A stretch of DNA of 64,000 nt from an uncultured bacterium (GCA_937930175.1 CALGLP010000022.1:161360-225359), one strand, 5' to 3'. Shown: positions 30,376 to 49,038, counted from the stretch's first letter. A program made the numbers and translations. Notes: generated by a model not told the origin, from the sequence alone.

Positions 30376-30430
30376 CGATGTGAAATGCATCGAAATACTC
30401 CGAGCAACAGGCGAGGAGATAGGAGTAGGA

Positions 30431-32449
30431 ATGCACAAGGGAAAGATTTTTTGTTGGGTCGTTATTTTTCTGGGGTGCGTAAGCGTCGTGTTTGCCCAAA
30501 GTCATAGCCTAGATTTAGGGGAGATTAGTATCCTTGCTACACGCACAGGCATGATGGTTTCGGATGTGAGCCAAGGATTGACGGTCATTACACAAGAGGA
30601 TATCCAAAAATCAACGGCGACTTCTTTGGTCGATGTGATTGCTGCGCAAAGCGGTATTTTTGTCACAAATTATACAGGAAATCCTAAGGGAGTCAAGGTG
30701 GACGTCCGTGGGTTTGGCGAAGCAAGCGTCTCTAACCTTCTTGTCTTGGTGGATGGCCGGCGTACAAATCAAGCGGATCTCTCTGGCGTAGATTGGGGAC
30801 AGCTTCATTTAGGAAGTGTTGAGCGTATTGAAATCCTTAAAGGCCCATCAACTGTTCTTTACGGTGATAATGCCACCGCAGGCGTTATTAATATTGTGAC
30901 AAAAAAAGGATATCAATCCAAAGAAGCGCCGATCAAGGTAGGGGTTGAAGGAGGCAGCTTTAATTATCAGAAGGCCTTTGTTTCAGCGCAAGGAACGGCC
31001 AAGACCGTTGATTATTTTTTTGATGTTGCGCATCAATCAAAGGATGGTTATCGCGTTAACAGTGATTATTGGGCTAATGATTTCTTGGGAAATATTAAGG
31101 CAAGCCTTACGGATCAATCCTCTGTTGATTTCTCAAGTGGTTATCATCGTGACCATTATGGTATGCCAGGCGCTCTTTTTGATTCAGATATTCTTACCCT
31201 TGGGCGAAGGGGTAGCAAATACCCGGAAGATCAGGGATGGACCTCGGATGTTTTTGTCAACGTGGATCCCAAGATCCTTTTTTCGATCAATGATCAGGAG
31301 GCAGAGCTTTCTGGGTTTATATCGTATCGTAAACGATTTAATAAATCTTTAAGCGTGTCACCGTTTGGGCGTTATGAAACAGCCCATGAAATTAATTCAT
31401 TTGAATGGCGTCCTAAGCTTTCCCTGGAGGGTTCGATGGGAGAATGGTGGAAAAATAATTTGACCACGGGGGTCGATTATTTTTATGCCGATGATCATGT
31501 GCGAAGCGGGAACCAGGCCTTGGCTCAAGATGTTGTTAGTATTGTTAAACAGACCTTGGGGGTTTATGCGCTAGAGCGCATGGAATACAAGGAAAGGTTT
31601 CTGGTTAATATCGGGGGTCGTGCGATCTGGGCGGATTATAATTTCGATCAGACCCAGGTTGTTGCTAACACCGAAGAAAAAAAGATAGCTGATGGCGCCC
31701 TGAATGCCGGGGTAGGATATAAATATGGCAAGAATTCTCAAGTGTATTTTGACTATGCCCGCGCTTTTCGTTTGCCTGCCACCGATGAGTATTATCAAAA
31801 CAAATACGAGAGTCTTTGGGGGAGCGGCGGAGGGCTCAATACGGATCTTAAACATCAGGTTTCGCATAATTATGAACTGGGGATACGTGATTTTTCTTTG
31901 CCTTGGCTTAAAACTGATATGAATTTATTTTTGATGGATGTTAAAAATGAGATTTATTATGATCCGATCACGTATAAAAATGCAAATTATAGCCCAATGA
32001 CGCGTCATTGGGGTTTTGAGCTTGAAGGCAAGGCGCAAGTTTTTAGGAATACGCTTGAGCCTTTTATCAATTGGACATGGCAGGATGCTTTTTTTAAAGG
32101 GGGAGAATATGGCGGACACAAGGTTCCTTTTGTGCCGCAGAACAAGATTTCTTCGGGTGTGAGTGTTAACGTTTGCCGTGACCTAAAGACAACTTTTTCG
32201 GTGAATTATGTTGGAAAAAGTTTTGCCATCAGCGATCAAGCCAATGCCCAGGCGAAATTGAATTCTTACGTGACTTTTGATTTTAAGATAGACTACAGCT
32301 ATAAAGGGGCCAAGATGTGGTTTGGCGTTAAGAATATGTTTGATTGCCATTATGAGGCTTATGGTGTATATTCCTCAGGCGCTGATAAGGTAGGGTTTTA
32401 TCCTGCGGAAGTGCGTAGCTTTCTGGCGGGGATGAGCTATGAATTTTAG
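30431..32449 (+). CDS. btuB: TonB-dependent outer-membrane receptor, BtuB-like (cobalamin uptake inferred from riboswitch)
   Basis: Signal peptide and plug-domain motifs (LTVITQEDI, VDGRRTNQ). C-terminal beta-barrel ending in ...SYEF. Start set at ATG 30431 downstream of the riboswitch terminator. Confidence 0.8.
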   Translation: MHKGKIFCWVVIFLGCVSVVFAQSHSLDLGEISILATRTGMMVSDVSQGLTVITQEDIQKSTATSLVDVIAAQSGIFVTNYTGNPKGVKVDVRGFGEASVSNLLVLVDGRRTNQADLSGVDWGQLHLGSVERIEILKGPSTVLYGDNATAGVINIVTKKGYQSKEAPIKVGVEGGSFNYQKAFVSAQGTAKTVDYFFDVAHQSKDGYRVNSDYWANDFLGNIKASLTDQSSVDFSSGYHRDHYGMPGALFDSDILTLGRRGSKYPEDQGWTSDVFVNVDPKILFSINDQEAELSGFISYRKRFNKSLSVSPFGRYETAHEINSFEWRPKLSLEGSMGEWWKNNLTTGVDYFYADDHVRSGNQALAQDVVSIVKQTLGVYALERMEYKERFLVNIGGRAIWADYNFDQTQVVANTEEKKIADGALNAGVGYKYGKNSQVYFDYARAFRLPATDEYYQNKYESLWGSGGGLNTDLKHQVSHNYELGIRDFSLPWLKTDMNLFLMDVKNEIYYDPITYKNANYSPMTRHWGFELEGKAQVFRNTLEPFINWTWQDAFFKGGEYGGHKVPFVPQNKISSGVSVNVCRDLKTTFSVNYVGKSFAISDQANAQAKLNSYVTFDFKIDYSYKGAKMWFGVKNMFDCHYEAYGVYSSGADKVGFYPAEVRSFLAGMSYEF

Positions 32450-34726: not shown

Positions 34727-34905
34727 CGTTTTGCTTGCTAGCTTTTGGGATGCAGCAGGGGCTTAAAAGAAGTGCTTTTTTCGAAGAATCTTTATTGACA
34801 AAATTTGTTTCGCAGGGTAATGTTATAAAAGGTTAAGTTTATCGAGAAGAAAAGACAGATTGTTCTTTGATTCTCAAAATCTTTTTAAAAAGGTAGGTAG
34901 TCAGA

Positions 34906-35108: not shown

Positions 35109-35134
35109 AGCATATAGTAGGTGATAATCATAGA

Positions 35135-35170
35135 AAAAGGGCTAGCAGATTCTGCTAGCCCTTTTTCTTT
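35135..35170. terminator. Bidirectional rho-independent terminator (csp / hydA convergent)
   Basis: AAAAGGGCTAGCAGA/TCTGCTAGCCCTTTT perfect stem with A and T tracts on either side. Confidence 0.85.
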
Positions 35171-35190: not shown

Positions 35191-36963
35191 TTATTTTAAG
35201 TATGATTTTCGTGCAATGTAGCTGGTGTGGAGAAGGTGATGGGATTTTTCAGAAAGCGGTTTGCCAAGAAACTCATCGTAAAGTTTCTGGATATAAGGAT
35301 TGTCATGGCAGCAGCGCACTTTCTGGTCACGATCATCTTGATAAAGCCCTTGGGCGCGTTTGATGCGTAAGTCGTCGGTAACTCCGTAGGGTTGTCCGCC
35401 TCCGGCCACGCAACCTCCAGAGCAAGCCATTACTTCAATAAAATGATACGGCATGTCTTGGCCATTCTTTTTAGCCTCAAGAACTTTGTTCATCACGTAA
35501 CCAACATTTCCTAAGCCATGCGCAACCGCTACTTTGACTTGTGTGCCTTTGATGTTGATCGTTCCCTCCTTGACTCCTTGAAGTCCGCGGACCATGTCGA
35601 TCTCAACATTTTTTAAGTTTTCTTGGGTGATCATGTTGTAGGCTGTTCGCAGAGCTGCTTCCATAACGCCGCCCGTGGTCCCGAAGATGGTTCCACCGCC
35701 AGCATAATCTCCTAAGATGTGATCAGGCTCTTCATCGGGTAAATTTTTAAAGTCAATTCCCGCCTGGCGGATCATGCGCGCAAGTTCACGCGTTGTGAGG
35801 GACAAGTCGACATCTTGCTGTCCGGAAGAGAACATTTCTTTGGATCGTATAATCTCGAATTTCTTGGCCGTGCAAGGCATGATCGAGACAACGAAAATAC
35901 GTTTGGGATCAATTTTGTTTTTTTCAGCAAAATATGTCTTAGCAAGGGCTCCGACCATTTCGTGAGGCGATTTACACGAGGAGAAAAATTCAATAGCGCC
36001 GTGGATATACTTTTCCATAAAATCGACCCAGGATGGGCAGCAGCTTGTGATCAAGGGCAAGGGCCCTTTTTTGTGAACAAAGCGTTGAACAAACTCTGTG
36101 GCCTCTTCGATGATGGTAACATCGGCACCAAAGTTTGTATCAAAGACAGCTTTAAAGCCAAGTCGGCGTAGGACAGCGTAAAGTTTTTTGGTTAAATTGG
36201 TTCCAATCGGATAGCCAAAGCTTTCTCCAATAGCGACGCGAACCGCAGGTGCAATCTGTGCAACGCAATAATTGTTTTCATCACGTAGCTTCGCCCATGT
36301 TGATTCGGTTTGGTCGTATTCGAAGATAGCGCCGGTAGGGCAGTGGGCAGAGCATTGGCCGCAGCGAACACACGGCGAGTCTGCTAAATTGATGTTGGCG
36401 GTTTCGAGGTCTCCTGCAGGGGCAATGCGCATATGGATACCGCGTCCTAAGAATCCTAACGCCCAGACATCTTGAATTTGTTGACAGACTTCAACACAAC
36501 GGCCGCATTTGATACATTTGGCAGGTTCCAAGACGATGCTTTTTGTTGAGATATCTTTTGTTTTGTTCTTGATAACTTTCTCAAAAAGTTCTTCTTGGAT
36601 TGCAAAGTCTGCGGTGAGTTTTTGGAGTTCACAATAATAGCTTCGTCCGCACTGAAGACAATCGTTGGGATGGTTGGATAAAATAAGCTCCAGAACGGTT
36701 TTGCGGACTTCAACGATTTCCGGATCATGGGTGATGATCTCCATGCCATCTTCAAGCGTGGTACAGCAAGAACGGAGAAGTTTTTTAGAGCCTTTAATTT
36801 TGACAATACATAGGCCGCACGCCGCTGTGGCGGGAAGGTCCGGATGTTTACAGAGGGTGGGGATTCTGATGTGAGCTTGTTTTGCAGCATCGAGAATGCT
36901 CAAACCCGCTGGGACGCGAACATTTTTATCATTAATTTTAGCTTTGATTGTTTTTGCTTGCAT
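35191..36963 (-). CDS. hydA: [FeFe]-hydrogenase catalytic subunit (HydA/HndD-like, multimeric NAD(P)-linked type)
   Basis: H-cluster motifs TSCCPSW, MPCTAKKFE and EVMACSGGCVAGGGQP. N-terminal 2Fe-2S domain and two 4Fe-4S ferredoxin motifs. Confidence 0.9.
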   Translation of the reverse strand: MQAKTIKAKINDKNVRVPAGLSILDAAKQAHIRIPTLCKHPDLPATAACGLCIVKIKGSKKLLRSCCTTLEDGMEIITHDPEIVEVRKTVLELILSNHPNDCLQCGRSYYCELQKLTADFAIQEELFEKVIKNKTKDISTKSIVLEPAKCIKCGRCVEVCQQIQDVWALGFLGRGIHMRIAPAGDLETANINLADSPCVRCGQCSAHCPTGAIFEYDQTESTWAKLRDENNYCVAQIAPAVRVAIGESFGYPIGTNLTKKLYAVLRRLGFKAVFDTNFGADVTIIEEATEFVQRFVHKKGPLPLITSCCPSWVDFMEKYIHGAIEFFSSCKSPHEMVGALAKTYFAEKNKIDPKRIFVVSIMPCTAKKFEIIRSKEMFSSGQQDVDLSLTTRELARMIRQAGIDFKNLPDEEPDHILGDYAGGGTIFGTTGGVMEAALRTAYNMITQENLKNVEIDMVRGLQGVKEGTINIKGTQVKVAVAHGLGNVGYVMNKVLEAKKNGQDMPYHFIEVMACSGGCVAGGGQPYGVTDDLRIKRAQGLYQDDRDQKVRCCHDNPYIQKLYDEFLGKPLSEKSHHLLHTSYIARKSYLK

Positions 36964-36965
36964 GA

Positions 36966-38762
36966 TTAACCTCGTGTGATCGCTTTAAATTTACATCGTT
37001 CGAAACATAGGCCGCATTTGATACATTTGGTGTGATCAATGAGATAGCCTTTTTCGCGGTCTCCGGAGATGGCTCCCACAGGGCATGCCTTGGCACAAAG
37101 ACCGCATTTAATACATTTTTCTATGAGAATGTCGAATTTGAGTAAATGACTACATTTGTGGGCGCGGCATTTATGATTTTGAATGTGCTCGGTATATTCC
37201 TCTGTAAAATATTTCATCGTTGATAAAACAGGGTTGCTTGCCGTTTGCCCTAGGCCGCATAGCGATGCCTTTTGCATGGCCTGGGATATCCTTGAAAGTT
37301 TATCAAGGTGGTCCATGGATCCATTGCCGTTGGTGATTTTTTCAAGGAGATGAAGCAGCTGATAGCCTCCAATGCGGCAGGGTGCGCATTTGCCACAAGA
37401 TTCATCAACAGAAAATTGTAAATAAAACTTTGTAATGTCCACAATACAATCATCTTCATCCATGACGATCATGCCGCCAGATCCCATCATCGAGCCAATG
37501 GCAATTAGGTTGTCATAATCGATGGGGGTGTCTAAGAATTGCGCGGGGATGACGCCTCCTGAAGGGCCTCCGGTTTGTGCAGCTTTGAATTGTTTGCCAT
37601 CTTTGATCCCGCCACCGATATCAAAGATGATCTCTCGCAGGGTTGTTCCCATGGGGACTTCGATAAGGCCAGAGTTGTTGATTTTTCCTGTTAAGGCAAA
37701 GACCTTTGTGCCTTTTGACTTTTCGGTCCCTATTTTAGCAAACCATGCGGCACCTCTTAAGATGATGACGGGGATGTTGGCCCAGGTCTCAACATTATTG
37801 ATAACAGTTGGTTTACCCCAAAGTCCTTTGACCGCAGGAAAAGGAGGTCGAGGCCGTGGCATGCCACGTTCACCTTCAAGAGAGGCTAAGAGCGCTGTTT
37901 CTTCGCCGCAAACAAAGGCGCCAGCTCCTAATCGGATTTCAATGTCAAAGCTAAAGGAACTTCCTAAGAGATTTTCACCTAAGAGTCCATAATCACGGGC
38001 TTGCGCTATGGCGATGTTGAGTCGCTCGATGGCGAGCGGGTATTCTGCGCGAATATAAATAAAGCCTTTGTTGGCATTAACCGCATAACCGGCAATGGTC
38101 ATTGCTTCGAGGATGGAGTGGGGGTCACCTTCAAGCGTGCTTCTGTCCATATAGGCTCCAGGATCGCCTTCGTCCGCGTTGCAGACAATATATTTGATGT
38201 CGCTAGGAGCTTTTTTTGTGAATGACCATTTCATGCCTGTTGGGAATCCTGCGCCACCGCGTCCGCGTAGGCCTGATTTGGTGACTTCCTCAATGACTTG
38301 GTCAGGGGTCATCTCAAAGAGGACTTTTTCAAGCGCCTTGTAGCCATCGCGGGCAATGTATTCATCGATTTTTTCAGGATCGATCACGCCGCAGTTTCTT
38401 AAGACAATGCGAAATTGTTTTTGATAGAAATCGATATTGGCCACGTCGGTCATAGGGTGGCGGCCTTTGTCGTCTTTGGGGTTGTACAAAAGACGCTTGA
38501 CCATTCGTCCTTTAATAATGTTTTCTTCGATGATCTCGCGAACATCTTCAGGCTTGAGTCGCACATAAAAGGCATTGTCGGGTAAGACTTTAACAATGGG
38601 TCCTTGTTCGCAAAAGCCAAAACAACCTGTTTTAACAACTTGGACATCATTTTCAAGCTGATGGTCTTTGATTTCTTTCATGAAATGATCATGGATTTCG
38701 CGCGAGCGACTTGATTCGCAGGCCGTTCCAGAACAAATAAGAATATAATGTTTATAGGGCAT
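36966..38762 (-). CDS. hydB: NuoF-like NAD(P)H-binding flavoprotein subunit (HydB/HndC)
   Basis: N-terminal thioredoxin-like 2Fe-2S. NuoF FMN/NADH motifs (GRGGAGFPTG, ADEGDPGA). SLBB and C-terminal 2x4Fe-4S (CIKCGLC...). Confidence 0.9.
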   Translation of the reverse strand: MPYKHYILICSGTACESSRSREIHDHFMKEIKDHQLENDVQVVKTGCFGFCEQGPIVKVLPDNAFYVRLKPEDVREIIEENIIKGRMVKRLLYNPKDDKGRHPMTDVANIDFYQKQFRIVLRNCGVIDPEKIDEYIARDGYKALEKVLFEMTPDQVIEEVTKSGLRGRGGAGFPTGMKWSFTKKAPSDIKYIVCNADEGDPGAYMDRSTLEGDPHSILEAMTIAGYAVNANKGFIYIRAEYPLAIERLNIAIAQARDYGLLGENLLGSSFSFDIEIRLGAGAFVCGEETALLASLEGERGMPRPRPPFPAVKGLWGKPTVINNVETWANIPVIILRGAAWFAKIGTEKSKGTKVFALTGKINNSGLIEVPMGTTLREIIFDIGGGIKDGKQFKAAQTGGPSGGVIPAQFLDTPIDYDNLIAIGSMMGSGGMIVMDEDDCIVDITKFYLQFSVDESCGKCAPCRIGGYQLLHLLEKITNGNGSMDHLDKLSRISQAMQKASLCGLGQTASNPVLSTMKYFTEEYTEHIQNHKCRAHKCSHLLKFDILIEKCIKCGLCAKACPVGAISGDREKGYLIDHTKCIKCGLCFERCKFKAITRG

Positions 38763-38772
38763 AAAAACCTCG

Positions 38773-39162
38773 TTAATGTTTTACAATGTCAATAGAAGGT
38801 TTGTCTTGAATATGATCATCGAGTAGCGCTTTGTCGATAATATGTTTCTGGATAATCTTACGCGCAGTATCTTCTGTGACGTTTCCATAGAGAGTCGTTG
38901 GCATGTCGGGCATGAAGATCTCAACGGTCGGCTCAACATTGCAATTGCCCATACAGCCGGTTTGTTTAACCGCAATATTCTTAAGGTTACGTTTGTTGAG
39001 TTCATCGATGAAGGCATTTAAGGTTTTTTTGGCTCCTGCAGCAATTCCGCAAGTTCCCATGCCAACCACGATACGGGTATCTTGTTGGCTATCGCGCTTG
39101 TCCATGTCTATTTTGAGCGATTCGCGCATTTTTCGTAAATCATCAAGAGTAAGTTTGCTCAT
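38773..39162 (-). CDS. Small thioredoxin-like 2Fe-2S ferredoxin subunit (HndB/HydD-like)
   Basis: GMGTCGIAAGA...GCMGNCNVEP cluster-binding pattern. Sits between the ATPase and NuoF-like genes. Confidence 0.7.
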   Translation of the reverse strand: MSKLTLDDLRKMRESLKIDMDKRDSQQDTRIVVGMGTCGIAAGAKKTLNAFIDELNKRNLKNIAVKQTGCMGNCNVEPTVEIFMPDMPTTLYGNVTEDTARKIIQKHIIDKALLDDHIQDKPSIDIVKH

Positions 39163-39171
39163 AGTTATCTC

Positions 39172-39714
39172 CTAGAGATTGATAATGTCTTGTTCTAAGC
39201 TAATGAGATATTTCTGGGCTAGCATTAAGTTGCCAGCGCGAGAGAGATCTCCGAGTGTTTTTTTCAAATCATTACGAACAATAGTATATTTTTGTTCGCC
39301 GTATGATCGGTTGATGACCAATTCATGATTGCCATCAAAGATCATTAACTGCAACATTGTCTGCGGTACGTCGCCAAGCGGGGGAGTATCCACATGGGAT
39401 TTATGAAACGTAAAGGAAACTGATGTTCCAAAATCTTTTTCAGATCGAATATCCCAGGTGCCGCAACCCTGTTCTACGGCTTGCGCTAAGAACGATAATC
39501 CAAGGCCTTGCGTGCGTTTATGTTTTTTGCCATTGGTTATAAAAGGATCTTGCGCCTTGGCTAAGGTTTTGGGATCCATGCCTTTACCATTATCTGCGAC
39601 CAGAAACTTATATTTTTCCTTTGTTTCGATGACATCAACAACAATGAGCGTCGCTTCGGATTCAATAGAGTTTTGAACAATGTCGCTTAAAAAGTCACAG
39701 AGCGTTAAATGCAT
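39172..39714 (-). CDS. Histidine-kinase-like ATPase (HATPase_c only) associated with hydrogenase operon
   Basis: N-box-like IVQNSIES, DNGKGMD, GLGLS G-boxes. No HisKA or receiver domain. Confidence 0.65.
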   Translation of the reverse strand: MHLTLCDFLSDIVQNSIESEATLIVVDVIETKEKYKFLVADNGKGMDPKTLAKAQDPFITNGKKHKRTQGLGLSFLAQAVEQGCGTWDIRSEKDFGTSVSFTFHKSHVDTPPLGDVPQTMLQLMIFDGNHELVINRSYGEQKYTIVRNDLKKTLGDLSRAGNLMLAQKYLISLEQDIINL

Positions 39715-39716
39715 TG

Positions 39717-40189
39717 CTAATACTTAGAAAGAATTTCTGGAAGTTGGCTTTTGAGAAGCTTTCCGTAGACGGTTCCGTTGATGGACATGACGGGAGCGAG
39801 TCCACAGCAGCCTAAGCAGCGTACAGCTTCAACCGAAAATTTTCCATCCGGGGTCATATCATTGAGGCCTACTCCTAAGATGGTTTCAAGCTCTTTGATG
39901 ATGTCTTCGCCGCCCTTAAGATAACAGGCTGTTCCCATGCAAACGGCAATAATGTTTTTTCCTCGTTTTTCTAATTTAAAGTAATGATAAAAAGTAATCA
40001 CGCCATAAATTTTGGCGAGAGGAACATCGAGAACTTCGGCGAGTTTGAAAGCAACATTGCGAGGAATAAAGCCATATTCTTCTTGGGCCTTGTGTAAGAT
40101 CATGATGAGATTGCCGGGCTTGTCTTTCCATTGAGCAATATAATCTAAAAGCCCAGGTGTGAGTTCAAGATTTTTGATCGTTTCCATTT
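39717..40189 (-). CDS. hydC: NuoE-like 2Fe-2S subunit (HydC/HndA)
   Basis: CMGTACYLKGGE...CLGCCGLAPV thioredoxin-like 2Fe-2S motifs. GGAGGA RBS on the minus strand. Start at ATG 40189. Confidence 0.85.
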
Positions 40190-40348
40190 TAAATCCTCCA
40201 GTGAGAAGCTTAAGAATAGGGCAAATTATAAAGGAAAGAGGGGAACTAATCAAGAGAAATCTTTTGTTACTATGAGAACTTTTAATTTGACATATTGATA
40301 TCTTATGTTACTATTGTGACATAAAAATAGAGAAAGGAGAGTGTTATT

Positions 40349-41011
40349 GTGACTGAAAGCAAGGAATTGATATCACGATTGCTCAAATATAAGAATGTTT
40401 TAACAAATTTCAAAAAACTTGGGATGGTCAAGATCTTTTCGGACAATCTTGGGGATGCTACGGGGTTGTCCTCGTCGCAGGTGCGTAAGGATTTTAGCGC
40501 CCTCAAGATCACCGGCAATAAGCGTGGCGGTTATGATGTTGATCATTTGGTTGTGCGGCTTAATCAAATCTTAGTTGGTGACCGTAAGCAGAAGGTGATC
40601 GTGGTCGGTTGTGGCAATATTGGCCGTGCCTTGATTGAATATAACGGATTTCATTGCGAGAGTCTAAAAATCGTTGCGGGGTTTGATATTAGCAAAGGGA
40701 AATGGGATCCTGAGGCTAAGGTGCCGATCTATCCATTAGAAAAAATGGAAGAGTATGTTAAGAAGAATCAGATCAAGGTTGGCGTTGTTGCTGTCCCTGA
40801 GAATGAGGCATCTTCGGTTTGCGACAAGATGATCGCCGCAGGTATTAAGGGTATTTTAAATTTTGCACGTGTTTATATTCGCGAGACCGAAGGGGCTGTG
40901 GTGGATACGGTTAACATTGAGCTCAAGATCGAGAATTTGTTTTATTTCGCCAATGCCCTAACCAAAGAACATGATTATTCTAAGATTAAGAGGCAACTCC
41001 ATGAAGATTGA
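40349..41011 (+). CDS. rex: Redox-sensing transcriptional repressor Rex
   Basis: Winged-helix N-terminus (ISRLLKYKNVL...ATGLSSSQVRKDFS) and Rossmann VIVVGCGNIGRAL. GTG start after AAGGAGAG. Confidence 0.85.
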   Translation: MTESKELISRLLKYKNVLTNFKKLGMVKIFSDNLGDATGLSSSQVRKDFSALKITGNKRGGYDVDHLVVRLNQILVGDRKQKVIVVGCGNIGRALIEYNGFHCESLKIVAGFDISKGKWDPEAKVPIYPLEKMEEYVKKNQIKVGVVAVPENEASSVCDKMIAAGIKGILNFARVYIRETEGAVVDTVNIELKIENLFYFANALTKEHDYSKIKRQLHED

Positions 41012-41342
41012 TCAACTTATCAAAGCATTAGATTGTGAGGTGGTGCACCGCCGCAAAGAAACAGGCGTTAAAGATCTCAAGCATTTTGTTGTTTCGGATC
41101 TTATGAGCGATGTCCTTCTTGTCGATGGCGATGTGGATCTTTTGATCACGTCGTTAGCGACAACGCAGGCGATACGCACCGCTGATATCGTAAGTGCGAT
41201 TGGCGTTATTGTTGTTAATGGCAAGGCGGTAACCGCGGATATGAAAGTTTCTGCCAAAGAGCTTGATGTCACGTTGCTGAAGACAAAGCTATCTTCTTTT
41301 GAGGTTTGCGGCACCATTCATCATCTGAAAGGACAAGAGTGA
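41001..41342 (+). CDS. DRTGG domain protein
   Basis: Small protein with a DRTGG-like core (LLITSLATTQAIRTADIVSAIGVIVVNGK). Confidence 0.55.
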   Translation: MKIDQLIKALDCEVVHRRKETGVKDLKHFVVSDLMSDVLLVDGDVDLLITSLATTQAIRTADIVSAIGVIVVNGKAVTADMKVSAKELDVTLLKTKLSSFEVCGTIHHLKGQE

Positions 41343-42283
41343 TGACGGATAAAGGCATTCCGATCAAGATGGAAGAATCGACATCGTTGATCTTGGACTT
41401 GATCTATCAACTCAAGATTAAAGATGTCATGACTCGCAATCTGGTCATTGCTTCTCCTGAGGATTCCTTGGATCATATTAAGACATTAATGAAGCAAAGA
41501 AATGTTACCGGTATTCCGATTGTGAAGAAAGATCGGCTTTTGGGTATCTTGAGTATTGATGATATTTTTAAGGCTTTAGATAGTGGCTATATGCAAGAGC
41601 TTGCAGAAAAGCATATGTCTAAGAAGCTTGTCATGCTCGAAGAGGACATGCCGCTTGCCTTTGCGATTTCTTATTTTGATAAATTTAAGTATGGTCGTTT
41701 TCCTGTGGTTGATAAAAACAATCTTTTGGTAGGGATGATCACGAGCCGTGATATTAATGTTGGACTTTTGATGGCCATCAACAAAGAAGTTGCGCGCATG
41801 GAAGAACTTTTGGCCCAGACGACTCCTGTTGATGCGCATCATATTCGCAAGATGTTCCGTATCCGTAAGTATGATTTTGAACATGCCGGGAACGCGTCAA
41901 ATCGGATTAAAAAGCTTCTTGTGGAGCGTAAGTTGGATCCCAAAGATATTCGACGTGTTGCGGTCGCGATGTATGAGCTCGAGATTAACATTGCTGTCCA
42001 TTCTGACGGAGGAACATTGACGGTGATCATTGATCAAGATCATGCGGAGATTACTGCCAAGGACTCAGCGCCTGGGATCGAACATCCGGAACTCGCGCTT
42101 CAGGAAGGATATTCAACAGCCAACGAATGGATTAAGTCTTTGGGTTTTGGGGCCGGCATGGGGTTAGCCAATATTCGTCGTGTTTCCGATAGTTTTGATT
42201 TTCAGTCGGCGCTTGGCAAGGGAACGACCGTTCGAGCGGTTATTCATTTTAAACGAAAGGAAGAGAAAAGCCATGACCATTAG
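41342..42283 (+). CDS. CBS-pair + histidine-kinase-like ATPase (anti-sigma-factor-type Ser kinase fold)
   Basis: Two CBS motifs (VMTRNLVIASPED, PVVDKNNLLVGMITSRDI). C-terminal HATPase (GFGAGMGLANI, GKGTTV). Confidence 0.65.
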   Translation: MTDKGIPIKMEESTSLILDLIYQLKIKDVMTRNLVIASPEDSLDHIKTLMKQRNVTGIPIVKKDRLLGILSIDDIFKALDSGYMQELAEKHMSKKLVMLEEDMPLAFAISYFDKFKYGRFPVVDKNNLLVGMITSRDINVGLLMAINKEVARMEELLAQTTPVDAHHIRKMFRIRKYDFEHAGNASNRIKKLLVERKLDPKDIRRVAVAMYELEINIAVHSDGGTLTVIIDQDHAEITAKDSAPGIEHPELALQEGYSTANEWIKSLGFGAGMGLANIRRVSDSFDFQSALGKGTTVRAVIHFKRKEEKSHDH

Positions 42284-42608
42284 TGAGATGACAAAGCTTA
42301 CAGAACTTACGCTTGTGCAGAAGGAATTTGAGGATGGTGTGATTTCCGGAGGATACACATCTGATCTTTTGAGCGATGTGATCGCCAATGCTGAGGCGAA
42401 TAATATCTTGATCACAATCCAAGCGCATATTAACACCGTAGCCGTATCAAAATTGGTTGGGATTCGTGCTATTGTTATTGCTAATCATAGAGAAGTTCCT
42501 ATTGATATGGTGGAAGCGGCTCAAAAAGAAAAGATTGCCCTTTTTTCATCAACGCTTAGCCAGTTCTCCTTGTCTGTCTTGATTGGCAAGCATATCCATA
42601 AACAATGA
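42273..42608 (+). CDS. DRTGG domain protein (second copy)
   Basis: ILITIQAHINTVAVSKLVGIRAIVIANHREVPIDMVEAAQKEKIALF. Start overlaps the preceding stop. Confidence 0.55.
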   Translation: MTISEMTKLTELTLVQKEFEDGVISGGYTSDLLSDVIANAEANNILITIQAHINTVAVSKLVGIRAIVIANHREVPIDMVEAAQKEKIALFSSTLSQFSLSVLIGKHIHKQ

Positions 42609-43327
42609 TGCGCATAAAAGCGGATCTCCATATCCATTCGACAGTTTCACCTTGTGCTACTCTTTTGATGTCGCCGAAGAATATTGTTAGCGTTGCGAAG
42701 GCCAAGGGATTGTCTCTTGTGGCCCTGACCGACCATAATTGTACGCGCAATTGTCCTGCATTTTTTTCGTTGTGCAAACGTGAAAATTTATTTTGCTTGG
42801 GCGGGGCTGAAGTGACAACCGTTGAGGAATGTCATGTCCTTTGCCTTTTTGATAATCTCAAGATTATTATGGAATTTGGCCAGTACGTCGAATCCCGCTT
42901 GCCTGATGTGCCTAATCAAAGAGATCTTTTTGGTGATCAGGTTTATGTCAATGACCAGGAGGAGATCTTAGGTTCTGTGGAAAAGTATCTGGGTAATGCC
43001 ACCAGTATTAGCGTCTCTGAGCTTTGTAGGGCTGTGCATGAGCGAGGTGGTATTATTATTCCTGCGCATGTGGATCGTCCTGTTTTTGGAATGATCGCCC
43101 AATTAGGCTTTATTCCGCAGGAGCCTTTTGACGCCCTTGAGATCTATCGAAATAATAAGAGTGCCGCTATTGGCGCAGAAGAAAAGTATCCTCTTATTTC
43201 TAATTCGGATTCGCATATGCCAGATGAAGTTGGTTGTGTTTATACGGCAATGGAGATGCCGGAGATATCCTTTATCAATTTGAAAGAGGCATTGAAGCGT
43301 GGGGCAGTTTTTATTGAGCGGGGATAG
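42605..43327 (+). CDS. PHP-domain metal-dependent phosphoesterase
   Basis: ADLHIHST...ALTDHN...PAHVDRP His/Asp motifs of the PHP family. Confidence 0.75.
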   Translation: MMRIKADLHIHSTVSPCATLLMSPKNIVSVAKAKGLSLVALTDHNCTRNCPAFFSLCKRENLFCLGGAEVTTVEECHVLCLFDNLKIIMEFGQYVESRLPDVPNQRDLFGDQVYVNDQEEILGSVEKYLGNATSISVSELCRAVHERGGIIIPAHVDRPVFGMIAQLGFIPQEPFDALEIYRNNKSAAIGAEEKYPLISNSDSHMPDEVGCVYTAMEMPEISFINLKEALKRGAVFIERG

Positions 43328-43506
43328 CGGTCTTTAGCAAAGAGCAAGAATTACGACTAGATAGTTAAGACTTAAAAAACATTTTTGATTTCTAGTATTT
43401 TGTGTATAATATTTTAATTGATCGAGACAAGGTATTGCATTTTTTAACGAGCAAGGGGTGTGGGGTTGAATAAAGATGATTTTATTTTTTGGTTAAAGAA
43501 ACATGT

Positions 43507-43542
43507 GCCGGCTTACCATGAAAGGTGAGCCGGTTTTATTTT
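43507..43542 (+). terminator. Intrinsic terminator/attenuator ending 23 nt before the nuoE-like start codon
   Basis: GCCGGCTTACC-ATGAAA-GGTGAGCCGG stem followed by TTTTATTTT. RBS AAAAAGGAGG and GTG 43566 follow directly. Confidence 0.6.
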
Positions 43543-43565
43543 ATGGATTTTAAAAAGGAGGCGTT

Positions 43566-44129
43566 GTGAAGCAAATAAGCCAAGGTTTGTCAAAAGATCA
43601 GCCTGTTGGTTCCTGTTGTTGTGGTGAGTTCTCCGAACCAGAAATGTTAAAACGTCTCGATGAGATTATTGATACGTATAAGTCTGCGGATGGGGCCTTG
43701 ATCCCGATCTTGCAAACAGCTCAAAATTTATTTGGATATCTTCCGAAAAATATTTTGCGTCGGATTGGCGAACGATTGCGGATCCCGTATAGTCAAGTCG
43801 CTGGCGTTGTGTCGTTTTATTCTTTTTTCTCAACAAATCCTCGGGGTAAGAATTTAGTGCGTGTGTGTCTGGGAACCGCGTGCTATGTGCGTGGAGGCAA
43901 GGAGGTTTTGTCAACGATGCAAAAAACCCTTGGCATTAATGTTGGTGAAACAACAGCTGATAAAATGTTTTCGCTGGAGGTTGGGCGTTGTTTTGGTGCC
44001 TGTGGTTTGGCGCCTGTTGTGATGATCAACGAGGATGTTCATCAGCGGGTTAAGCCAGCAAAGATAAAAGAACTTCTAAGCTTTTATCGTGAGGCAAAGT
44101 CACAGACACAGGAGGCCGCCGCATGTTAA
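43566..44129 (+). CDS. hydC: NuoE-like 2Fe-2S subunit (HydC/HndA), second locus
   Basis: CLGTACYVRGG...CFGACGLAPV. Confidence 0.85.
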   Translation: MKQISQGLSKDQPVGSCCCGEFSEPEMLKRLDEIIDTYKSADGALIPILQTAQNLFGYLPKNILRRIGERLRIPYSQVAGVVSFYSFFSTNPRGKNLVRVCLGTACYVRGGKEVLSTMQKTLGINVGETTADKMFSLEVGRCFGACGLAPVVMINEDVHQRVKPAKIKELLSFYREAKSQTQEAAAC

Positions 44130-47100
44130 CTGACAAGATTTTATCCTTGAAAGATTTAAATCGTATCAAAGATGCTGCGGTTGCGGAAAAGGTCAAACGT
44201 AGTATTTATAAAGAGGTTTTGATCTGTGCTGGGGGAGGATGTATTGCTAGCGGTTCGCTGCAGATTAAGAAACGCTTGGAAGAGAAGATTGAGAAGAATG
44301 GAGTTGTCATCGATATTGTCGAGACAGGATGTTTAGGTCCTTGCGCTAAGGGGCCTGTGATGGTCGTAAACCCTGGGCATGTCTTTTATGAGAATGTTAC
44401 CCTTGATGATGTTGATCAAATTTTTGAGGAACATCTTTTTAAGGGGAAAATTGTTGAGCGGCTTTTGCATCGCAATTTTGAAACGAATAAACCTGTTTCT
44501 GACATCAAGGATGTTGATTTTTTTAAACGACAAACAAAAATTGTTTTGCGGAATTGCGGAACGATCGATCCTCAGAATATTGTTGATTATATTCGCGTGG
44601 ATGGATATCAGGCTTTGGCCAAGGCTTTGACGATGATGTCGGCTGATCAGATTATTGATGAGGTTAAAAAGTCAGGGCTCCGCGGCCGTGGAGGAGCAGG
44701 GTTTTCTACTGGAATGAAATGGGAATTTACACGTAAAGCGCCCGGCAGTGTTAAATACGCGATTTGCAACGCGGATGAAGGAGATCCTGGGGCTTTCATG
44801 AATCGAAGCGTTCTTGAGGGAGATCCTCATAGCGTGATCGAAGGGATGATGATCGCGGGTTTTGCGATTGGGGCTAAACAAGGATTTGTTTATGTGCGGG
44901 CGGAGTATCCGTTGGCGGTTTCACGATTGATGAAGGCGATCGAGCAGGCTCGGGCGTGTGGCCTTTTAGGAAAAAATATTCTTGGAACGGATTTTTCATT
45001 TGATTTGGATATCCGCATGGGTTCTGGGGCGTTTGTGTGCGGAGAAGAAACTGCTTTGATGGCATCATTGGAGGGAAAGCGTGGAGAGCCGCGTCCGCGT
45101 CCACCTTTTCCAGCTATTAAAGGACTTTGGGGTAAGCCGAGCTTGCTCAATAACGTTGAGACATATGTTAATGTGCCGATCATTCTCCTTAAAGGGGCCG
45201 ATTGGTTTGCGTCGATGGGAACGGAAAAAAGCAAGGGAACCAAGGTGTTTGCCTTAGCAGGGGCTGTGAACAATACAGGGCTTGTGGAGGTTCCTATTGG
45301 GACGTCGCTTGGGGAGTTAATTTATGATATTGGCGGTGGGATCAAAAATGGAAAAGAATTTAAGGCCGCTCAAATTGGAGGGCCCTCGGGAGGCTGTATC
45401 CCTAAGCAACATCTTAATGTTCCATTGGACTACGACACGCTTGTTGAGTTGGGCGCTATCATGGGATCAGGCGGGCTCATTGTGATGGATGATGATTCGT
45501 GTATTGTGGATGTGGCGCGTTTTTTTCTTGAATTTGTGCAAGATGAATCGTGCGGAAAATGTGTGCCGTGTCGTGTTGGGTCAAAACGGATGCTTGAGAT
45601 CCTTGAGAAAATTTGTAAAGGAGAAGGTAAACCAGAGCATATTAAGAAATTGCTTGAATTGGGTGAAGGAATAAAAGATGCTTCGCTTTGTGGGTTAGGC
45701 TATACCTCGGCTAATCCTGTGCGTTCAACCTTGCGTCATTTTCCTAAAGAATATGAAGAGCATATTCGTGATAAACATTGTGAGGCTGGGGTTTGCCCTG
45801 ATCTCGTGCGGGCCCCGTGCCAGAGCGCTTGCCCAGCCGGTGTTGACATTCCAGGTTTTATTGCTTTAACAGGGGAAGAACGCTACGCGGAAGCGCTCAA
45901 GCTTCATCGTGAACGCAATCCTTTTGCGGCTGTGTGCGCAAGAGTTTGTTTTCACACTTGCGAGGATAAATGTCGCCGCGCTACGCTCGATACATCGGTT
46001 TCGATTCGTGGGATCAAGCGTTTTATGGTGGACCAAGAGATTGTCGTCCAAATCCCGGAGATTCATCATAACGAGGCAAATGCTAAGAGAAAGATCGCGA
46101 TTGTTGGGGCGGGGCCTGCCGGACTGTCTTGTGCGTATTTTCTTGCGCGCTTAGGTTATCGTCCTACGGTTTTTGAGAAAGAAATGCGTCCTGGAGGGAT
46201 GCTTGTTCAAACTATTCCTGCGTATCGTTTGCCACGAGAAACCTTAGCCCGTGAAATCCGCATGATTGAGCAGCTTGGTGTTGAAATTGAAACCGGAAAG
46301 GCGCTGGGACGTGATTTTACGATTGATTCGTTAAAGAAGCATGGTTATGAGGCGATCTTTATTGCCGTAGGAGCTCCGGAAAGTGTGCGCCTTGGGCTTG
46401 ACGGCGAAGCCTCGGGAGGGGTTGTTGATGCCCTTGATTTTTTAAGAACTTATAATATCAGGGGATCTGTTCCTGTGGGTAAGAAAGTTGTTGTTGTAGG
46501 AGGTGGGAATGCCGCGATTGATGCCTCGCGGAGCGCGTTGCGTTTAGGGGCCCAAGAAGTGACGGTTGTTTATCGTCGTAGTCAAAATGAAATGCCAGCG
46601 TACGCGGAAGAAGTGGACGAGGCTTTGCATGAAGGTGTCAAGATCTTGCCTTTAACTCACCCTATCGAGATCAAAAAGGATAAGGATGGGAAAGTCTGTG
46701 GATTAAAGTGTATTCACATGAAGCTTGGGGATTTTGATCAGACAGGGCGACGACGCCCAACCGCGAACGCGGAAGATGTTTTCGATATGGAAACGGATCA
46801 AGTGATTGTTGCGATTGGACAGAAAATGGATGTTAAAAAGCTTCTTGATGGGGTAACGATGAAGCTTTCAGAGAGAAATTTTATTTATGCGGATCCGGTT
46901 TTAGGAAAAACTTCGGTGGAGGGAATTTTTGCCGGAGGGGATGCCACGACGGGTCCTTCCTCAGTTGTGATGGCGATTTCTTCAGGAGAACATGCGGCAG
47001 TTGGGATTGATCAATATTTGACCGGAGAAGAACATGCATTTTGGCGTGTGCAGAAAGCTGTTAAGGTTGATTTTGATCCCGATGCGGACCCTGCTCCATA

Positions 47101-47260
47101 TCCGCGAGATCCGTTGCGATTGATTGATGTGGCGCGTCGCAAACATAATTTTGATGAAGTTGAACAATCGTGGAATGAAGGCGTAGCTAGGCGGCAAGCC
47201 AAGCGATGTTTGCGCTGCGATTATGGAAAATGTTTAGATGAGAAAGGGGGTAAGGCGTAA
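44123..47260 (+). CDS. hydB: NuoF-like flavoprotein subunit (HydB) fused to a C-terminal GltD/NfnB-like NAD(P)H:FAD oxidoreductase domain
   Basis: The N-terminal 600 aa are collinear with the first-locus HydB (GRGGAGFSTG, ADEGDPGA, 4Fe-4S motifs). The C-terminal 440 aa carry the GltD-type Cys motifs, IVGAGPAGL and a second VVVGGGNAA dinucleotide fold. Confidence 0.85.
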   Translation: MLTDKILSLKDLNRIKDAAVAEKVKRSIYKEVLICAGGGCIASGSLQIKKRLEEKIEKNGVVIDIVETGCLGPCAKGPVMVVNPGHVFYENVTLDDVDQIFEEHLFKGKIVERLLHRNFETNKPVSDIKDVDFFKRQTKIVLRNCGTIDPQNIVDYIRVDGYQALAKALTMMSADQIIDEVKKSGLRGRGGAGFSTGMKWEFTRKAPGSVKYAICNADEGDPGAFMNRSVLEGDPHSVIEGMMIAGFAIGAKQGFVYVRAEYPLAVSRLMKAIEQARACGLLGKNILGTDFSFDLDIRMGSGAFVCGEETALMASLEGKRGEPRPRPPFPAIKGLWGKPSLLNNVETYVNVPIILLKGADWFASMGTEKSKGTKVFALAGAVNNTGLVEVPIGTSLGELIYDIGGGIKNGKEFKAAQIGGPSGGCIPKQHLNVPLDYDTLVELGAIMGSGGLIVMDDDSCIVDVARFFLEFVQDESCGKCVPCRVGSKRMLEILEKICKGEGKPEHIKKLLELGEGIKDASLCGLGYTSANPVRSTLRHFPKEYEEHIRDKHCEAGVCPDLVRAPCQSACPAGVDIPGFIALTGEERYAEALKLHRERNPFAAVCARVCFHTCEDKCRRATLDTSVSIRGIKRFMVDQEIVVQIPEIHHNEANAKRKIAIVGAGPAGLSCAYFLARLGYRPTVFEKEMRPGGMLVQTIPAYRLPRETLAREIRMIEQLGVEIETGKALGRDFTIDSLKKHGYEAIFIAVGAPESVRLGLDGEASGGVVDALDFLRTYNIRGSVPVGKKVVVVGGGNAAIDASRSALRLGAQEVTVVYRRSQNEMPAYAEEVDEALHEGVKILPLTHPIEIKKDKDGKVCGLKCIHMKLGDFDQTGRRRPTANAEDVFDMETDQVIVAIGQKMDVKKLLDGVTMKLSERNFIYADPVLGKTSVEGIFAGGDATTGPSSVVMAISSGEHAAVGIDQYLTGEEHAFWRVQKAVKVDFDPDADPAPYPRDPLRLIDVARRKHNFDEVEQSWNEGVARRQAKRCLRCDYGKCLDEKGGKA

Positions 47261-49038
47261 TGGTGAAGTTAACAATTGATCGTAACATGGTCGAAGTTCC
47301 CCCTGAGATGACGATTTTGCAGGCCGCGCGACAAATGGGCATTATTATTCCTACGTTGTGTTATCTAGAAGGTAAGGATCCTATTGGTGCCTGTCGGGTG
47401 TGCGTTGTTGAGGTGCAAGGTGGTCGTAATTTGGTATCATCTTGTTCAACGCCTGTTGCGGAAGGCATGGTTGTTTTTACCAATAGCCCCCGTGTTCGTA
47501 GAGCTCGTAAATTAGTTGTTGAGCTTCTTTTGAGTGAGCATGAAGGAGATTGTCAAATTTGTGACCGCAGTGAGGATTGCGAATTAAAATCCTTGGCTTA
47601 TAGCTTAGGAATTCGCGAGCCGCATTATGAGGGTGAAAAGCCAGAAAGGTTTTTGGATGTAAGTTCTTCCGCGCTTGTTCGAGATTCTGGCAAGTGCATA
47701 AAATGTCGTCGCTGTGTTACGGTTTGCAACGAAATTCAACACGTGGGAGCCCTTTTTCCTCAGAATCGTGGATATAAAACATTGATCGGACCTGCGTTTG
47801 CTCTAGGCCTTGAAGATGTACCTTGCGTTCAATGTGGGCAGTGTGCAGCGGTTTGTCCTGTGGGCGCGATCATTGAGAAAAGCCATGTGGATATGGTTTG
47901 GGCAGCGCTTGAGGACAAGACTAAACATGTCGTTGTGCAAACCGCTCCCGCGATTCGTGCGGCGCTAGGGGAGTGTTTTGATTATCCACCAGGAACTCTT
48001 GTGACAGGAAAAATGATCACCGCGCTTCGTCTTATGGGATTTGATGCGGTTTTTGATACTAATTTTGCGGCGGATTTGACGATCATGGAAGAAGGCACAG
48101 AGCTTTTGTTGCGTCTTAAAAAGGCGCTCGTTGAAAAACAACCCGTGGCCTTGCCTCAATTTTCAAGTTGTTCGCCGGGATGGATCAAGTTTACCGAATA
48201 TTTTTATCCAGAGTTTCTGCCGAATCTATCTTCTTGTAAGTCACCGCAACAAATGTTTGGCGCGATCGCGAAGACGTTTTATGCGCAAAAGAAGGGCTTG
48301 CGTCCTGAAGATATTGTTGTTGTGTCGGTTATGCCGTGTACGGCGAAAAAGTTTGAATCCAGCCGTCCTGAGATGAATAGTAGCGGCGTCAGAGACGTGG
48401 ATTATGTTTTGACAACACGCGAATTAGGTCAGATGATCACGGCGGCCGGTATTCATTTTACAGCGTTAGAAGACGGACAGACGGATTCGCCTCTTGGGCT
48501 TTCGTCGGGTGCCGCGGATATTTTTGCTAATAGCGGTGGGGTTATGGAGGCGGCTATCCGTACGGCTTACGAGATCGTGACAGGTCGTGAGCTTCCACTT
48601 GTAAATCTTCATGTTGAACCTTTGGCAGGGCTAAAGGGAATTAAAGAAGCAGCCCTTAAGCTTGAGCAGGTTCTTCCGGCGTGGTCTTTTTTAGAAGGTG
48701 TTGAATTAAAAGTCGCCGTCGCGCATAGCTTATCCAATGCCGCGGCCTTGCTTGATCTCATCAAGGCGGGTCAGGCCCATTATCATTTTGTTGAGGTCAT
48801 GACATGTCCTGGGGGATGTATTGGTGGAGGAGGCCAGCCGCGATTTACAACTGATGAAGTCCGTCGGGCGCGCATCAATGCGATCTACAAGGAAGACGAA
48901 GGCAAGGCAATGCGCAAATCCCATGACAATCCGGACGTAAAAAAGCTCTATGCAGAGTTTTTGACTGATGGCCCTTGTGGTCATCAAAGCCATAAGCTTT
49001 TGCATACGCATTATGTTGACCGTGGGGATAAAATTTGA
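47260..49038 (+). CDS. hydA: [FeFe]-hydrogenase catalytic subunit, second locus, with variant L1 motif
   Basis: MPCTAKKFE and EVMTCPGGCIGGGGQP are conserved. L1 reads FSSCSPGW instead of TSCCPxW. N-terminal 2Fe-2S plus ferredoxin domains. ATG overlaps the hydB stop. Confidence 0.9.
   Translation: MVKLTIDRNMVEVPPEMTILQAARQMGIIIPTLCYLEGKDPIGACRVCVVEVQGGRNLVSSCSTPVAEGMVVFTNSPRVRRARKLVVELLLSEHEGDCQICDRSEDCELKSLAYSLGIREPHYEGEKPERFLDVSSSALVRDSGKCIKCRRCVTVCNEIQHVGALFPQNRGYKTLIGPAFALGLEDVPCVQCGQCAAVCPVGAIIEKSHVDMVWAALEDKTKHVVVQTAPAIRAALGECFDYPPGTLVTGKMITALRLMGFDAVFDTNFAADLTIMEEGTELLLRLKKALVEKQPVALPQFSSCSPGWIKFTEYFYPEFLPNLSSCKSPQQMFGAIAKTFYAQKKGLRPEDIVVVSVMPCTAKKFESSRPEMNSSGVRDVDYVLTTRELGQMITAAGIHFTALEDGQTDSPLGLSSGAADIFANSGGVMEAAIRTAYEIVTGRELPLVNLHVEPLAGLKGIKEAALKLEQVLPAWSFLEGVELKVAVAHSLSNAAALLDLIKAGQAHYHFVEVMTCPGGCIGGGGQPRFTTDEVRRARINAIYKEDEGKAMRKSHDNPDVKKLYAEFLTDGPCGHQSHKLLHTHYVDRGDKI

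Follow-up and report, generated by a model that had tools for sequence, protein, structure and literature searches.

The closest described systems include those of Caldicellulosiruptor (C. bescii and C. saccharolyticus), in which the redox-sensing repressor Rex represses its own gene, [FeFe]-hydrogenase genes and hydG, as shown by electrophoretic mobility shift assay (PMC6391272, citing Bielen 2013). Rex control of hydrogenases is, further, widely predicted in the Firmicutes and Thermotogae (Ravcheev 2012, cited in PMC6391272), and in Thermoanaerobacterium saccharolyticum Rex sites are predicted in front of hfs, ech, hydG and a gene with a PHP domain (PMC5886521). Here we describe a 64,000-nt stretch of DNA from an uncultured Omnitrophota bacterium (the whole of which we refer to as the window; coordinates count from its start), in which rex is wedged between two [FeFe]-hydrogenase operons, designated hyd1 and hyd2, and is divergent from the first gene of hyd1, hydC1. 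The overall explanation that we consider probable is that Rex autoregulates a five-gene operon that begins with rex, that control of hyd1 is possible and that hyd2 is without a recognizable Rex operator. Rex control of hydrogenases as such is already well known; what is new is its predicted occurrence in the Omnitrophota, for which we found no such description. The Omnitrophota are an uncultured, in part ultra-small phylum.

Like the Caldicellulosiruptor Rex regulons (PMC6391272), the Omnitrophota locus combines an NADH-sensing-type Rex with an 18-20-bp palindromic operator in promoter regions, binding in our case being predicted from sequence. Unlike in Caldicellulosiruptor, rex stands between two hydrogenase operons and is predicted to be co-transcribed with four regulator-like genes, and the strong box lies on the rex promoter only; a matrix scan of the window found no Rex box near hydG, hydE or hydF. 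The likeness to Thermoanaerobacter ethanolicus and T. saccharolyticum lies in an operator with T at its fifth position (ATTGTTA-N6-TAACAAT), which L001, L002 and L003 share and which the window has with one change (L-numbers denote fetched homologous loci; L001, L002, L003 and L056 are the Omnitrophota relatives that were aligned with the window). Unlike the Thermoanaerobacter and Thermoanaerobacterium sites, which have TT/AA flanks, the Omnitrophota boxes have A/T flanks and inner C/G or T/A; the genomic arrangement in those genera also differs from that of the Omnitrophota locus. If our explanation is correct, the Rex-hydrogenase logic established in the Firmicutes and Thermotogae would extend to the Omnitrophota and Spirochaetota, and a divergent rex-hydC pair with its box could serve as a simple marker for predicting when such organisms vent reductant as H2. 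The practical value of this is modest, and the HydB-GltD hydrogenase, the leader terminator and the kinase/phosphatase-like module described below are more useful leads than the Rex site.

A candidate Rex operator at the rex promoter

The rex product scores 214.8 bits against the NCBIfam Rex equivalog NF003996 (cutoff 138), carries the winged-helix N-terminal domain PF06971 and the Rossmann C-terminal domain PF02629 of Pfam over its full length, and aligns over residues 7-202 with the Rex structures 3keo and 2vt2. The recognition-helix motif VRKDFS is conserved with respect to solved Rex structures, the dinucleotide motif GCGNIG lies at residues 87-92, and an FD pair at residues 112-113 matches the FD of 3keo and 2vt2 and provides the acidic residue that follows beta-2 and makes for NAD(H) selectivity. 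Judged by these features, the gene product is a bona fide Rex orthologue, the DNA binding of which would be relieved by NADH, as in other members of the family.

To judge the site independently of a preset consensus, 54 loci of Rex relatives were fetched, and the rex upstream regions from outside the Omnitrophota, 46 after removal of redundancy, were used for a motif count and for a weight matrix. In the unbiased count, the commonest 5-mer gapped palindrome of these foreign regions was TGTGA-N6-TCACA (28 of 46); ATGTG-N8-CACAT ranked second, and the A...T flanks of the proximal box introduced below therefore represent a common natural variant. The full core TGTNA-N6-TNACA (8/8 positions) was present in 45 of the 54 rex upstream regions.

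As shown in Table 1, two sigma-70-type promoters stand back to back in the 161-bp rex/hydC1 intergenic region, and a Rex-type palindrome, the proximal box, spans the -10 element and the start site of the rex promoter, a classical repressor position. The core is complete in this box (40306-40321). The Rex matrix, a 20-nt palindromic matrix trained solely on the foreign-phylum rex upstream sites, placed 40304-40323 at the top of the ~64,000 window positions with 12.76 bits, and first-order Markov simulations, by which significance was assessed, gave an expectation of ~0.001 sites at 12.8 bits per 161-bp intergenic region. The core pattern occurs twice in the window, where 0.77 copies of the full 8/8 core are expected by chance per 64 kb, and the second copy is inside an MMPL-family coding region. 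Further, the Thermoanaerobacter Rex motif ATTGTTANNNNNNTAACAAT (PMC5886521), when allowed one core mismatch, matched the window six times, with the proximal box as the sole intergenic match, and the T-variant core TGTTA-N6-TAACA agrees with this motif.

These results bear on the first-pass annotation of the window, which had pointed to a near-palindrome resembling a degenerate pair of Rex half-sites: the palindrome exists, albeit 8 nt away from the 40297-40314 given for it, and, with a full Rex core and the top matrix score of the window, the likeness holds and makes it a credible Rex operator. The same annotation was correct in seeing no canonical TTGTGAA-N6-TTCACAA; the published Rex consensus spaces the 7-mers by N4, not N6 (PMC6391272). 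When the matrix was run over the two intergenic regions to which that annotation had drawn attention, 40190-40348 held the top site of the window, whereas the best score within 43328-43565 was -1.9 bits. An initial search with the consensus TTGTNAANNNNTTNACAA at 3 mismatches returned 91 matches, compared with ~60 expected, and missed the proximal box, which has 4 flank mismatches to it; the search was too unspecific and was replaced by the core pattern and the trained matrix. Matrix matches at 57549, 55388 and 58518 are within coding regions and were taken as chance or as other elements.

Neighbouring genes in the run from rex through PHP share 1-11 nt and hence form a single operon, and the strong box on the -10/+1 region of its promoter would make rex and the four co-operonic regulator-like genes the most direct target. 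By analogy with described Rex proteins, at a low NADH/NAD+ ratio a Rex dimer on the proximal box would occlude RNA polymerase and repress its own five-gene operon, and at a high ratio Rex would release the box. We propose with good confidence that the proximal box is a functional Rex operator that autoregulates the rex operon.

Turnover of two boxes among Omnitrophota relatives

The closest public relatives of the window are Candidatus Omnitrophota metagenome-assembled genomes, with Rex identities of 80-89% and a syntenic arrangement of the whole set of genes. Alignment and matrix together revealed a second, distal Rex-type box, 41 bp or about four helical turns from the proximal box and situated between both -35 elements and upstream of each, at a distance of 10 bp from that of hyd1 and 5 bp from that of rex. 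In the window, the proximal box scores 12.8 bits and the degenerate distal box 5.5 bits. The proximal box of L001 is the perfect palindrome ATGTTAC-TATT-GTAACAT (17.0 bits), that of L056 scores 10.1 bits, and the distal boxes of both are weak. In L002 and L003 the proximal box scores 6.3 bits, and the distal box is the perfect palindrome TTGTTAT-N4-ATAACA, at 16.3 and 18.1 bits, respectively. Each relative keeps at least one strong box (10-18 bits), the strong one differing by lineage, and in each the best matrix match of the whole fetched locus falls in the rex/hydC1 intergenic region. As aligned, this pattern is turnover between two fixed positions, and the keeping of one strong box while the other decays is what would be expected from selection on a real operator pair.

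Both hexamers of the predicted hyd1 promoter are invariant in the four relatives, and no box overlaps the core of this promoter. Control of hyd1 is possible because the weak distal box is just upstream of the hyd1 -35: cooperative occupancy of this box could, with some uncertainty, extend repression to hydC1-HATPase-fd-hydB1-hydA1. Because the region is short and both boxes face the same side of the helix, repression of hyd1 appears plausible, and we regard direct repression by Rex in this genome as possible, if somewhat doubtful. Separately, the four relatives all keep unchanged the element GCTTAAGAAT (ATTCTTAAGC on the hyd1 strand) at 40208-40217, which falls at approximately +1 to +11 of the predicted hyd1 transcript, and the 5' untranslated region around it diverges; this element may be an additional operator or may act in the RNA.

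Several points weigh against our explanation. Of random 64-kb sequences, 30% contain a position that scores as high as the proximal box, and for this reason the case rests on a-priori location and conservation, not on the score alone. The box is at the low end of the training-site scores, which are mostly 14-21 bits, it deviates from the textbook consensus at positions 1, 7, 12 and 18, and its core is also the core of CRP/FNR-type sites; some of its conservation is owed to the promoter, because part of it doubles as the -10 hexamer. In Spirochaetes, a dozen loci in which rex and hydC diverge in the same way usually have one strong box, ~54 nt before rex and ~190 nt from hydC, a position that suggests autoregulation and not control of hyd1. 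On the side of hyd2, the -35 of the promoter-like block is weak, with TTGATT just 14 nt from TATAAT and the 16-nt alternative fitting at 3/6 positions, and strong Rex-like boxes are found directly upstream of hydC2 in L061 (16.2 bits), L062 (15.1 bits) and L063 (17.0 bits); Rex control of this enzyme type would therefore exist elsewhere and could here persist via read-through. Finally, both the occupancy of this locus by Rex and its response to NADH are wholly inferred. Overall, the most consistent signal of the lineage comparison points to autoregulation of rex.

The hyd2 leader and alternative explanations

A 238-bp spacer (43328-43565) separates PHP from hydC2, and the matrix scan found it to be without a Rex-type site. 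The element TAGTTAAGACTTAAAAAA, considered as a Rex site in this spacer, was discarded, since its 3 mismatches extend to core positions and its matrix score is negative, and the full 8/8 core occurs in 0 of 70 hydC2 upstream regions from metagenome loci. The spacer has instead a conserved promoter-like block and, ~100 nt downstream of it, an intrinsic-terminator-like hairpin that ends ~20 nt before the start of hydC2 (Table 1). A canonical sigma-70 promoter for hyd2 was rejected for the poor spacing and match of its -35, and the promoter call stays tentative. Ten pairs of the hairpin are conserved; three of these ten vary with pairing kept, one being changed on both sides, and the variation consists of C-G to U-A/U-G changes. 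The single-sequence fold of the leader has a z of -2.1. Every hydC2 transcript, whether it starts at the promoter-like block or arises by read-through from rex, must pass this predicted terminator, and expression of hyd2 would most likely be set there by another signal, not directly by Rex.

How such a signal might act is the subject of the alternative that survives best, which we put forward tentatively: hyd2 would be governed by attenuation at the leader terminator via a signal other than Rex/NADH, that is, a protein or metabolite acting on the ~100-nt leader, possibly tied to the CBS-kinase/PHP module, and the role of Rex would be indirect, via expression of those regulators. Consistent with attenuation, the hairpin and its U-run are at the same place in five Omnitrophota sequences, the remaining leader diverging, and the space between the U-run and the ribosome-binding site is too small for a promoter. 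The hydC2 leaders of L085 and L096 hold different, unrelated terminator-like hairpins (a hairpin in the L071 leader was seen by eye and not reported by the automated scan), and the regulator genes that share an operon with rex are conserved beside hydrogenase genes in Spirochaetes and other lineages. However, the five sequences represent three independent lineages only, the hairpin could simply terminate the rex operon, and a recognizable RNA-binding domain is present in none of the four regulator-like proteins (Pfam/NCBIfam). RNAalifold on the five sequences gave the terminator only, with no conserved antiterminator or aptamer fold, and the leader matched no Rfam family at gathering or relaxed thresholds. 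Leader-peptide attenuation was considered and rejected: four of the five sequences (the window, L056, L002 and L003) have an open reading frame (ORF) that stops within the hairpin, the closest relative, L001, lacks it, and the peptides are alike only across the stretch that encodes the conserved hairpin.

Joint and direct repression of both hydrogenases by Rex, of hyd1 via the divergent promoter and of hyd2 as the distal end of a rex-to-hydA2 transcript, is unlikely. It draws on the linkage of rex to both hydrogenase types in the window, L002 and L003, which recurs in other lineages, including the tandem arrangement of L059/L060; on the position of rex directly upstream of hydC2 in L085 and L115; on the hydC2 boxes of L061-L063; on the repression of hydrogenase genes by Caldicellulosiruptor Rex (PMC6391272); and on the distal box beside the hyd1 -35, because two boxes on the same face could bind cooperatively. 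Against these stand the low score of the distal box in the window, 5.5 bits, the absence of a box over the core hyd1 promoter, and a spacer between PHP and hydC2 that lacks a Rex site in the matrix scan and in which both a TATAAT block and a strong terminator are conserved. Because hyd2 has no Rex box and has a promoter-like block and terminator of its own, direct control of both enzymes is not supported; the evidence points to direct Rex control of one hydrogenase at most, and direct control of hyd2 in this genome appears improbable. The joint NADH-responsive control suggested by the first-pass annotation is thus an inference that the sequence leaves optional and, for hyd2, partly argues against.

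Least likely, and in our view very improbable, is that the palindrome is a CRP/FNR-family operator, or promoter sequence (-10 and start region) with incidental dyad symmetry: its core equals that of CRP-type sites (the E. coli CRP consensus shares TGTGA-N6-TCACA), its flanks read ATGT...ACAT where the Rex consensus has TT...AA, its left half overlaps a -10 that would be conserved regardless, and its score is within reach of random windows as given above, but rex is the sole gene common to the 54 loci with the recurring motif, the ATGT...ACAT variant is frequent in those rex upstream regions, the right half-site is outside the -10 and yet retained in all relatives, L001 has a perfect 7-4-7 palindrome, the palindromes of L002 and L003 are equally perfect and stand at the alternative position, clear of any -10, and no cNMP-binding or Crp-type gene is found among the annotated ORFs of the window, the part of the genome covered here.

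Two further observations concern hydC2 in other lineages. In one (L059/L060, 1-10500), rex, hyd1 and hyd2 follow each other on one strand, and hydC2 starts 58 nt after hydA1. In another (L062-L065), a conserved asymmetric box, TTGTTC-N6-TTTCACAA, comes right after the -10 of the hydC2 promoter.

Two paralogous hydrogenases with different modules

Both loci encode a NuoE-like subunit, a NuoF-like (FMN/NADH) subunit and a HydA with an H-cluster domain, and the first-pass proposal of paralogous hydrogenases with different modules agrees with our results: both enzymes are of the HydABC type, and their NuoF-like subunits carry different modules. Against NF040763 (cutoff 765 bits), HydA1 scores 778 bits and HydA2 863 bits. 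The hyd1 operon has the full HydABC cluster complement and, in addition, a HydD-like 2Fe-2S protein. We took as canonical the H-cluster motifs TSCCPxW (motif L1), MPCxxKxxE (L2) and ExMxCxxGCxxG (L3). Those of HydA1 are canonical (TSCCPSW, MPCTAKKFE and EVMACSGGCVAG). HydA2 has a complete Fe_hyd_lg_C domain, a small-subunit domain and intact L2 and L3, and its L1 reads SSCSPGW (48148-48168, residues ~297-303), outside the canonical set. The L1 serine aligns with the cysteine that precedes the proline in FTSCCPGW of the algal enzyme; by CpI and CrHydA1 numbering, we take the replaced cysteine to be a [4Fe-4S] ligand of the H-cluster. TSCSPGW or SSCSPGW was found in 30 of 30 HydA2-type loci (including L002, L003, L057, L058, L060 and L063), and TSCCP or TTCCP, with both cysteines kept, in all 17 HydA1-type loci examined.

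The N-terminal 2Fe-2S and the C-terminal 2x[4Fe-4S] of HydB are features that separate bifurcating from non-bifurcating enzymes. HydB1 has a 2Fe-2S_thioredx domain at residues 4-80 and Fer4 at 548-594. HydB2 keeps the N-terminal 2Fe-2S domain and misses the C-terminal 2x[4Fe-4S], which is replaced by Fer4_20 and Pyr_redox_2: a NuoF-like core extends to ~residue 564, and a GltD/NfnB-like FAD/NAD(P)H domain with the dinucleotide motifs GAGPAG and GGGNAA follows at ~563-1033. The N-terminal half of HydB2 matches HydB/BfuB subunits.

Like the electron-bifurcating HydABC enzymes of Thermotoga maritima (7p5h), Acetobacterium woodii (7q4v and 8a5e) and Thermoanaerobacter kivui (8a6t), with E-values from 1e-172 to 1e-230 for the best matches in the PDB, the Omnitrophota enzymes are built around the HydABC core; unlike in those structures, the GltD-like FAD/NAD(P)H domain of HydB2 takes the place of 2x[4Fe-4S], and HydA2 has SSCSPGW and not TSCCPxW. 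HydB2 also resembles Stn/NfnABC (8oh5, 9bov and 9n5u; PMC7483475 and PMC10482914), in that residues 563-1033 align with the NADPH-oxidising GltD-like domain of StnC/NfnA (E ~1e-95 to 1e-111) and StnB/NfnB is the counterpart to which its N-terminal half aligns. Stn/Nfn-Bfu carries the GltD-like domain on a NuoG-like subunit without an H-cluster, whereas here this domain is on the NuoF-like subunit and a full H-domain is present. Genome-annotation remarks in the literature mention, for a trimeric hydrogenase cluster of Vallitalea guaymasensis L81, a HydB enlarged by a GltD domain (PMC6163223) and, for Melainabacteria ACD20, TSCSPGW hydrogenases (PMC3787301), the latter being the one mention of the L1 serine substitution that we found. 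Neither paper ties the HydB-GltD fusion to the TSCSPGW motif, or either of them to Rex, and the papers found report no biochemistry for the HydB-GltD hydrogenase or the TSCSPGW variant. The HydB-GltD fusion is common among the fetched metagenome loci, and this widespread hydrogenase with its variant H-cluster motif would link H2 to the NAD(H) and NADP(H) pools.

A recurring set of regulator-like genes

Between rex and hyd2 lie genes for two DRTGG-like proteins (26% identical to each other), a CBS-HATPase protein and a PHP-family phosphoesterase. The CBS-HATPase is named in the sources only as an anti-sigma-factor-like Ser/Thr kinase, and its family of >3,500 members has generic names only. Together with the stand-alone HATPase gene of the hydrogenase operon, this set recurs beside HydABC genes in the Omnitrophota, Spirochaetota and other lineages (L005-L012, L017-L019 and L080-L107). 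A literature search on DRTGG near hydrogenases found nothing relevant, the literature and family libraries searched give no function for the HydABC-adjacent set, and the solved structures near the CBS-HATPase, PHP or HATPase proteins are generic domain matches only. An extended scheme, which we consider decidedly improbable, would make the Rex box an outer control layer, with the four rex-operon proteins and the hyd1 HATPase forming a nucleotide-sensing, partner-switching-type module dedicated to HydABC across several phyla, and with this module or another factor gating the terminator in the leader of the HydB-GltD/Ser-variant hydrogenase class.

Gene map of the locus

The gene map was based on Pfam and NCBIfam scans and on an independent gene caller run on contigs of identical sequence, which returned the same gene boundaries. 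The gene content and order that the first-pass annotation had given for both loci were thereby confirmed; its 40190, where it had the shared intergenic region begin, lies one codon outside the hydC1 ATG at 40187. On the 3' side of HydA2 are a CMD-family gene, a lyase and genes for the maturases HydF, HydG and HydE.

Table 1. Features of the rex-hydrogenase locus, in window coordinates
Feature	Position	Strand	Basis or remark
GC-rich hairpin, 17-bp stem, with A-run and T-run flanks	35132-35168	both	likely bidirectional terminator for csp (+) and the hyd1 operon (-)
HydA1, [FeFe]-hydrogenase catalytic subunit	35191-36963	-	Pfam/NCBIfam
HydB1, NuoF-like	36966-38762	-	Pfam
Small thioredoxin-like 2Fe-2S protein, HydD-like	38773-39162	-	Pfam/NCBIfam
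HATPase_c protein, histidine-kinase-like, stand-alone, inside the hyd1 operon	39172-39714	-	Pfam/NCBIfam
HydC1, NuoE-like 2Fe-2S subunit	39717-40187	-	ATG at 40187, GGAGG ribosome-binding site upstream
Predicted hyd1 promoter	40225-40253	-	TTGATT 40253-40248, 17-nt spacer, TATAAT 40230-40225
Distal Rex-type box TTGTTACTATGAGAACTT	40264-40281	both	alignment and matrix; degenerate in the window
Predicted rex promoter	40287-40314	+	TTGACA 40287-40292, 16-nt spacer, TACTAT 40309-40314, TG upstream of the -10
Proximal Rex-type box ATGTTACTATTGTGACAT	40305-40322	both	core pattern and matrix; overlaps -10 and +1 of the rex promoter
rex, redox-sensing repressor	40349-41011	+	Pfam/NCBIfam/structure alignment
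First DRTGG-like small protein	41001-41342	+	under Pfam threshold; 11-nt overlap with the end of rex
CBS-CBS-HATPase_c_2 protein (SpoIIAB/RsbW-type)	41342-42283	+	Pfam/NCBIfam
Second DRTGG-like protein, paralogue of the first	42273-42608	+	without Pfam match
PHP-family phosphoesterase	42605-43327	+	Pfam/NCBIfam
Promoter-like block of hyd2	43373-43410	+	conserved; A-tract, weak -35 TTTTGA 43383-43388, 16-nt spacer, perfect TATAAT 43405-43410
Intrinsic-terminator-like hairpin GCCGGCTTACC-ATGAAA-GGTGAGCCGGT followed by TTTTATTTT	43507-43545	+	conserved, pair-preserving changes
HydC2, NuoE-like subunit	43566-44129	+	Pfam
HydB2, NuoF+GltD fusion, 1045 aa	44123-47260	+	Pfam/NCBIfam
HydA2, [FeFe]-hydrogenase catalytic subunit	47260-49038	+	Pfam/NCBIfam

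Other observations in the window

Upstream of the cold-shock gene csp, ATTGTTCTTTGATTCTCAAA (34859-34878) has the fourth-best Rex-matrix score of the window, 10.5 bits; because L002 conserves the sequence but its TGT core reads CGT, this is probably a csp 5' untranslated region element and not a Rex site. A cobalamin riboswitch (RF00174, 57.4 bits) at 30130-30287 lies directly upstream of a TonB-dependent receptor gene (30320-32449). Just 3' of a TTGACA (region 55288-55321) is a perfect 9-4-9 inverted repeat, TCGTTATAT-CGTA-ATATAACGA (55300-55321), which precedes a cluster of thioredoxin, DUF302 and CoA-disulfide-reductase-like-rhodanese genes, with an ArsR-like ORF at ~57983-58259 seen by eye; a regulator that responds to thiols or redox state probably uses the repeat as its operator. 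Finally, genes for an Rrf2-family regulator, a 2x[4Fe-4S] protein and a hybrid-cluster (prismane) protein are clustered at 7924-10781, and downstream of them are a desulfoferrodoxin-domain gene (12680-13162) and an NDH-2-like gene (13631-14905), and taken together these genes point to an island for oxidative or nitrosative stress on the upstream side of the hydrogenase region.

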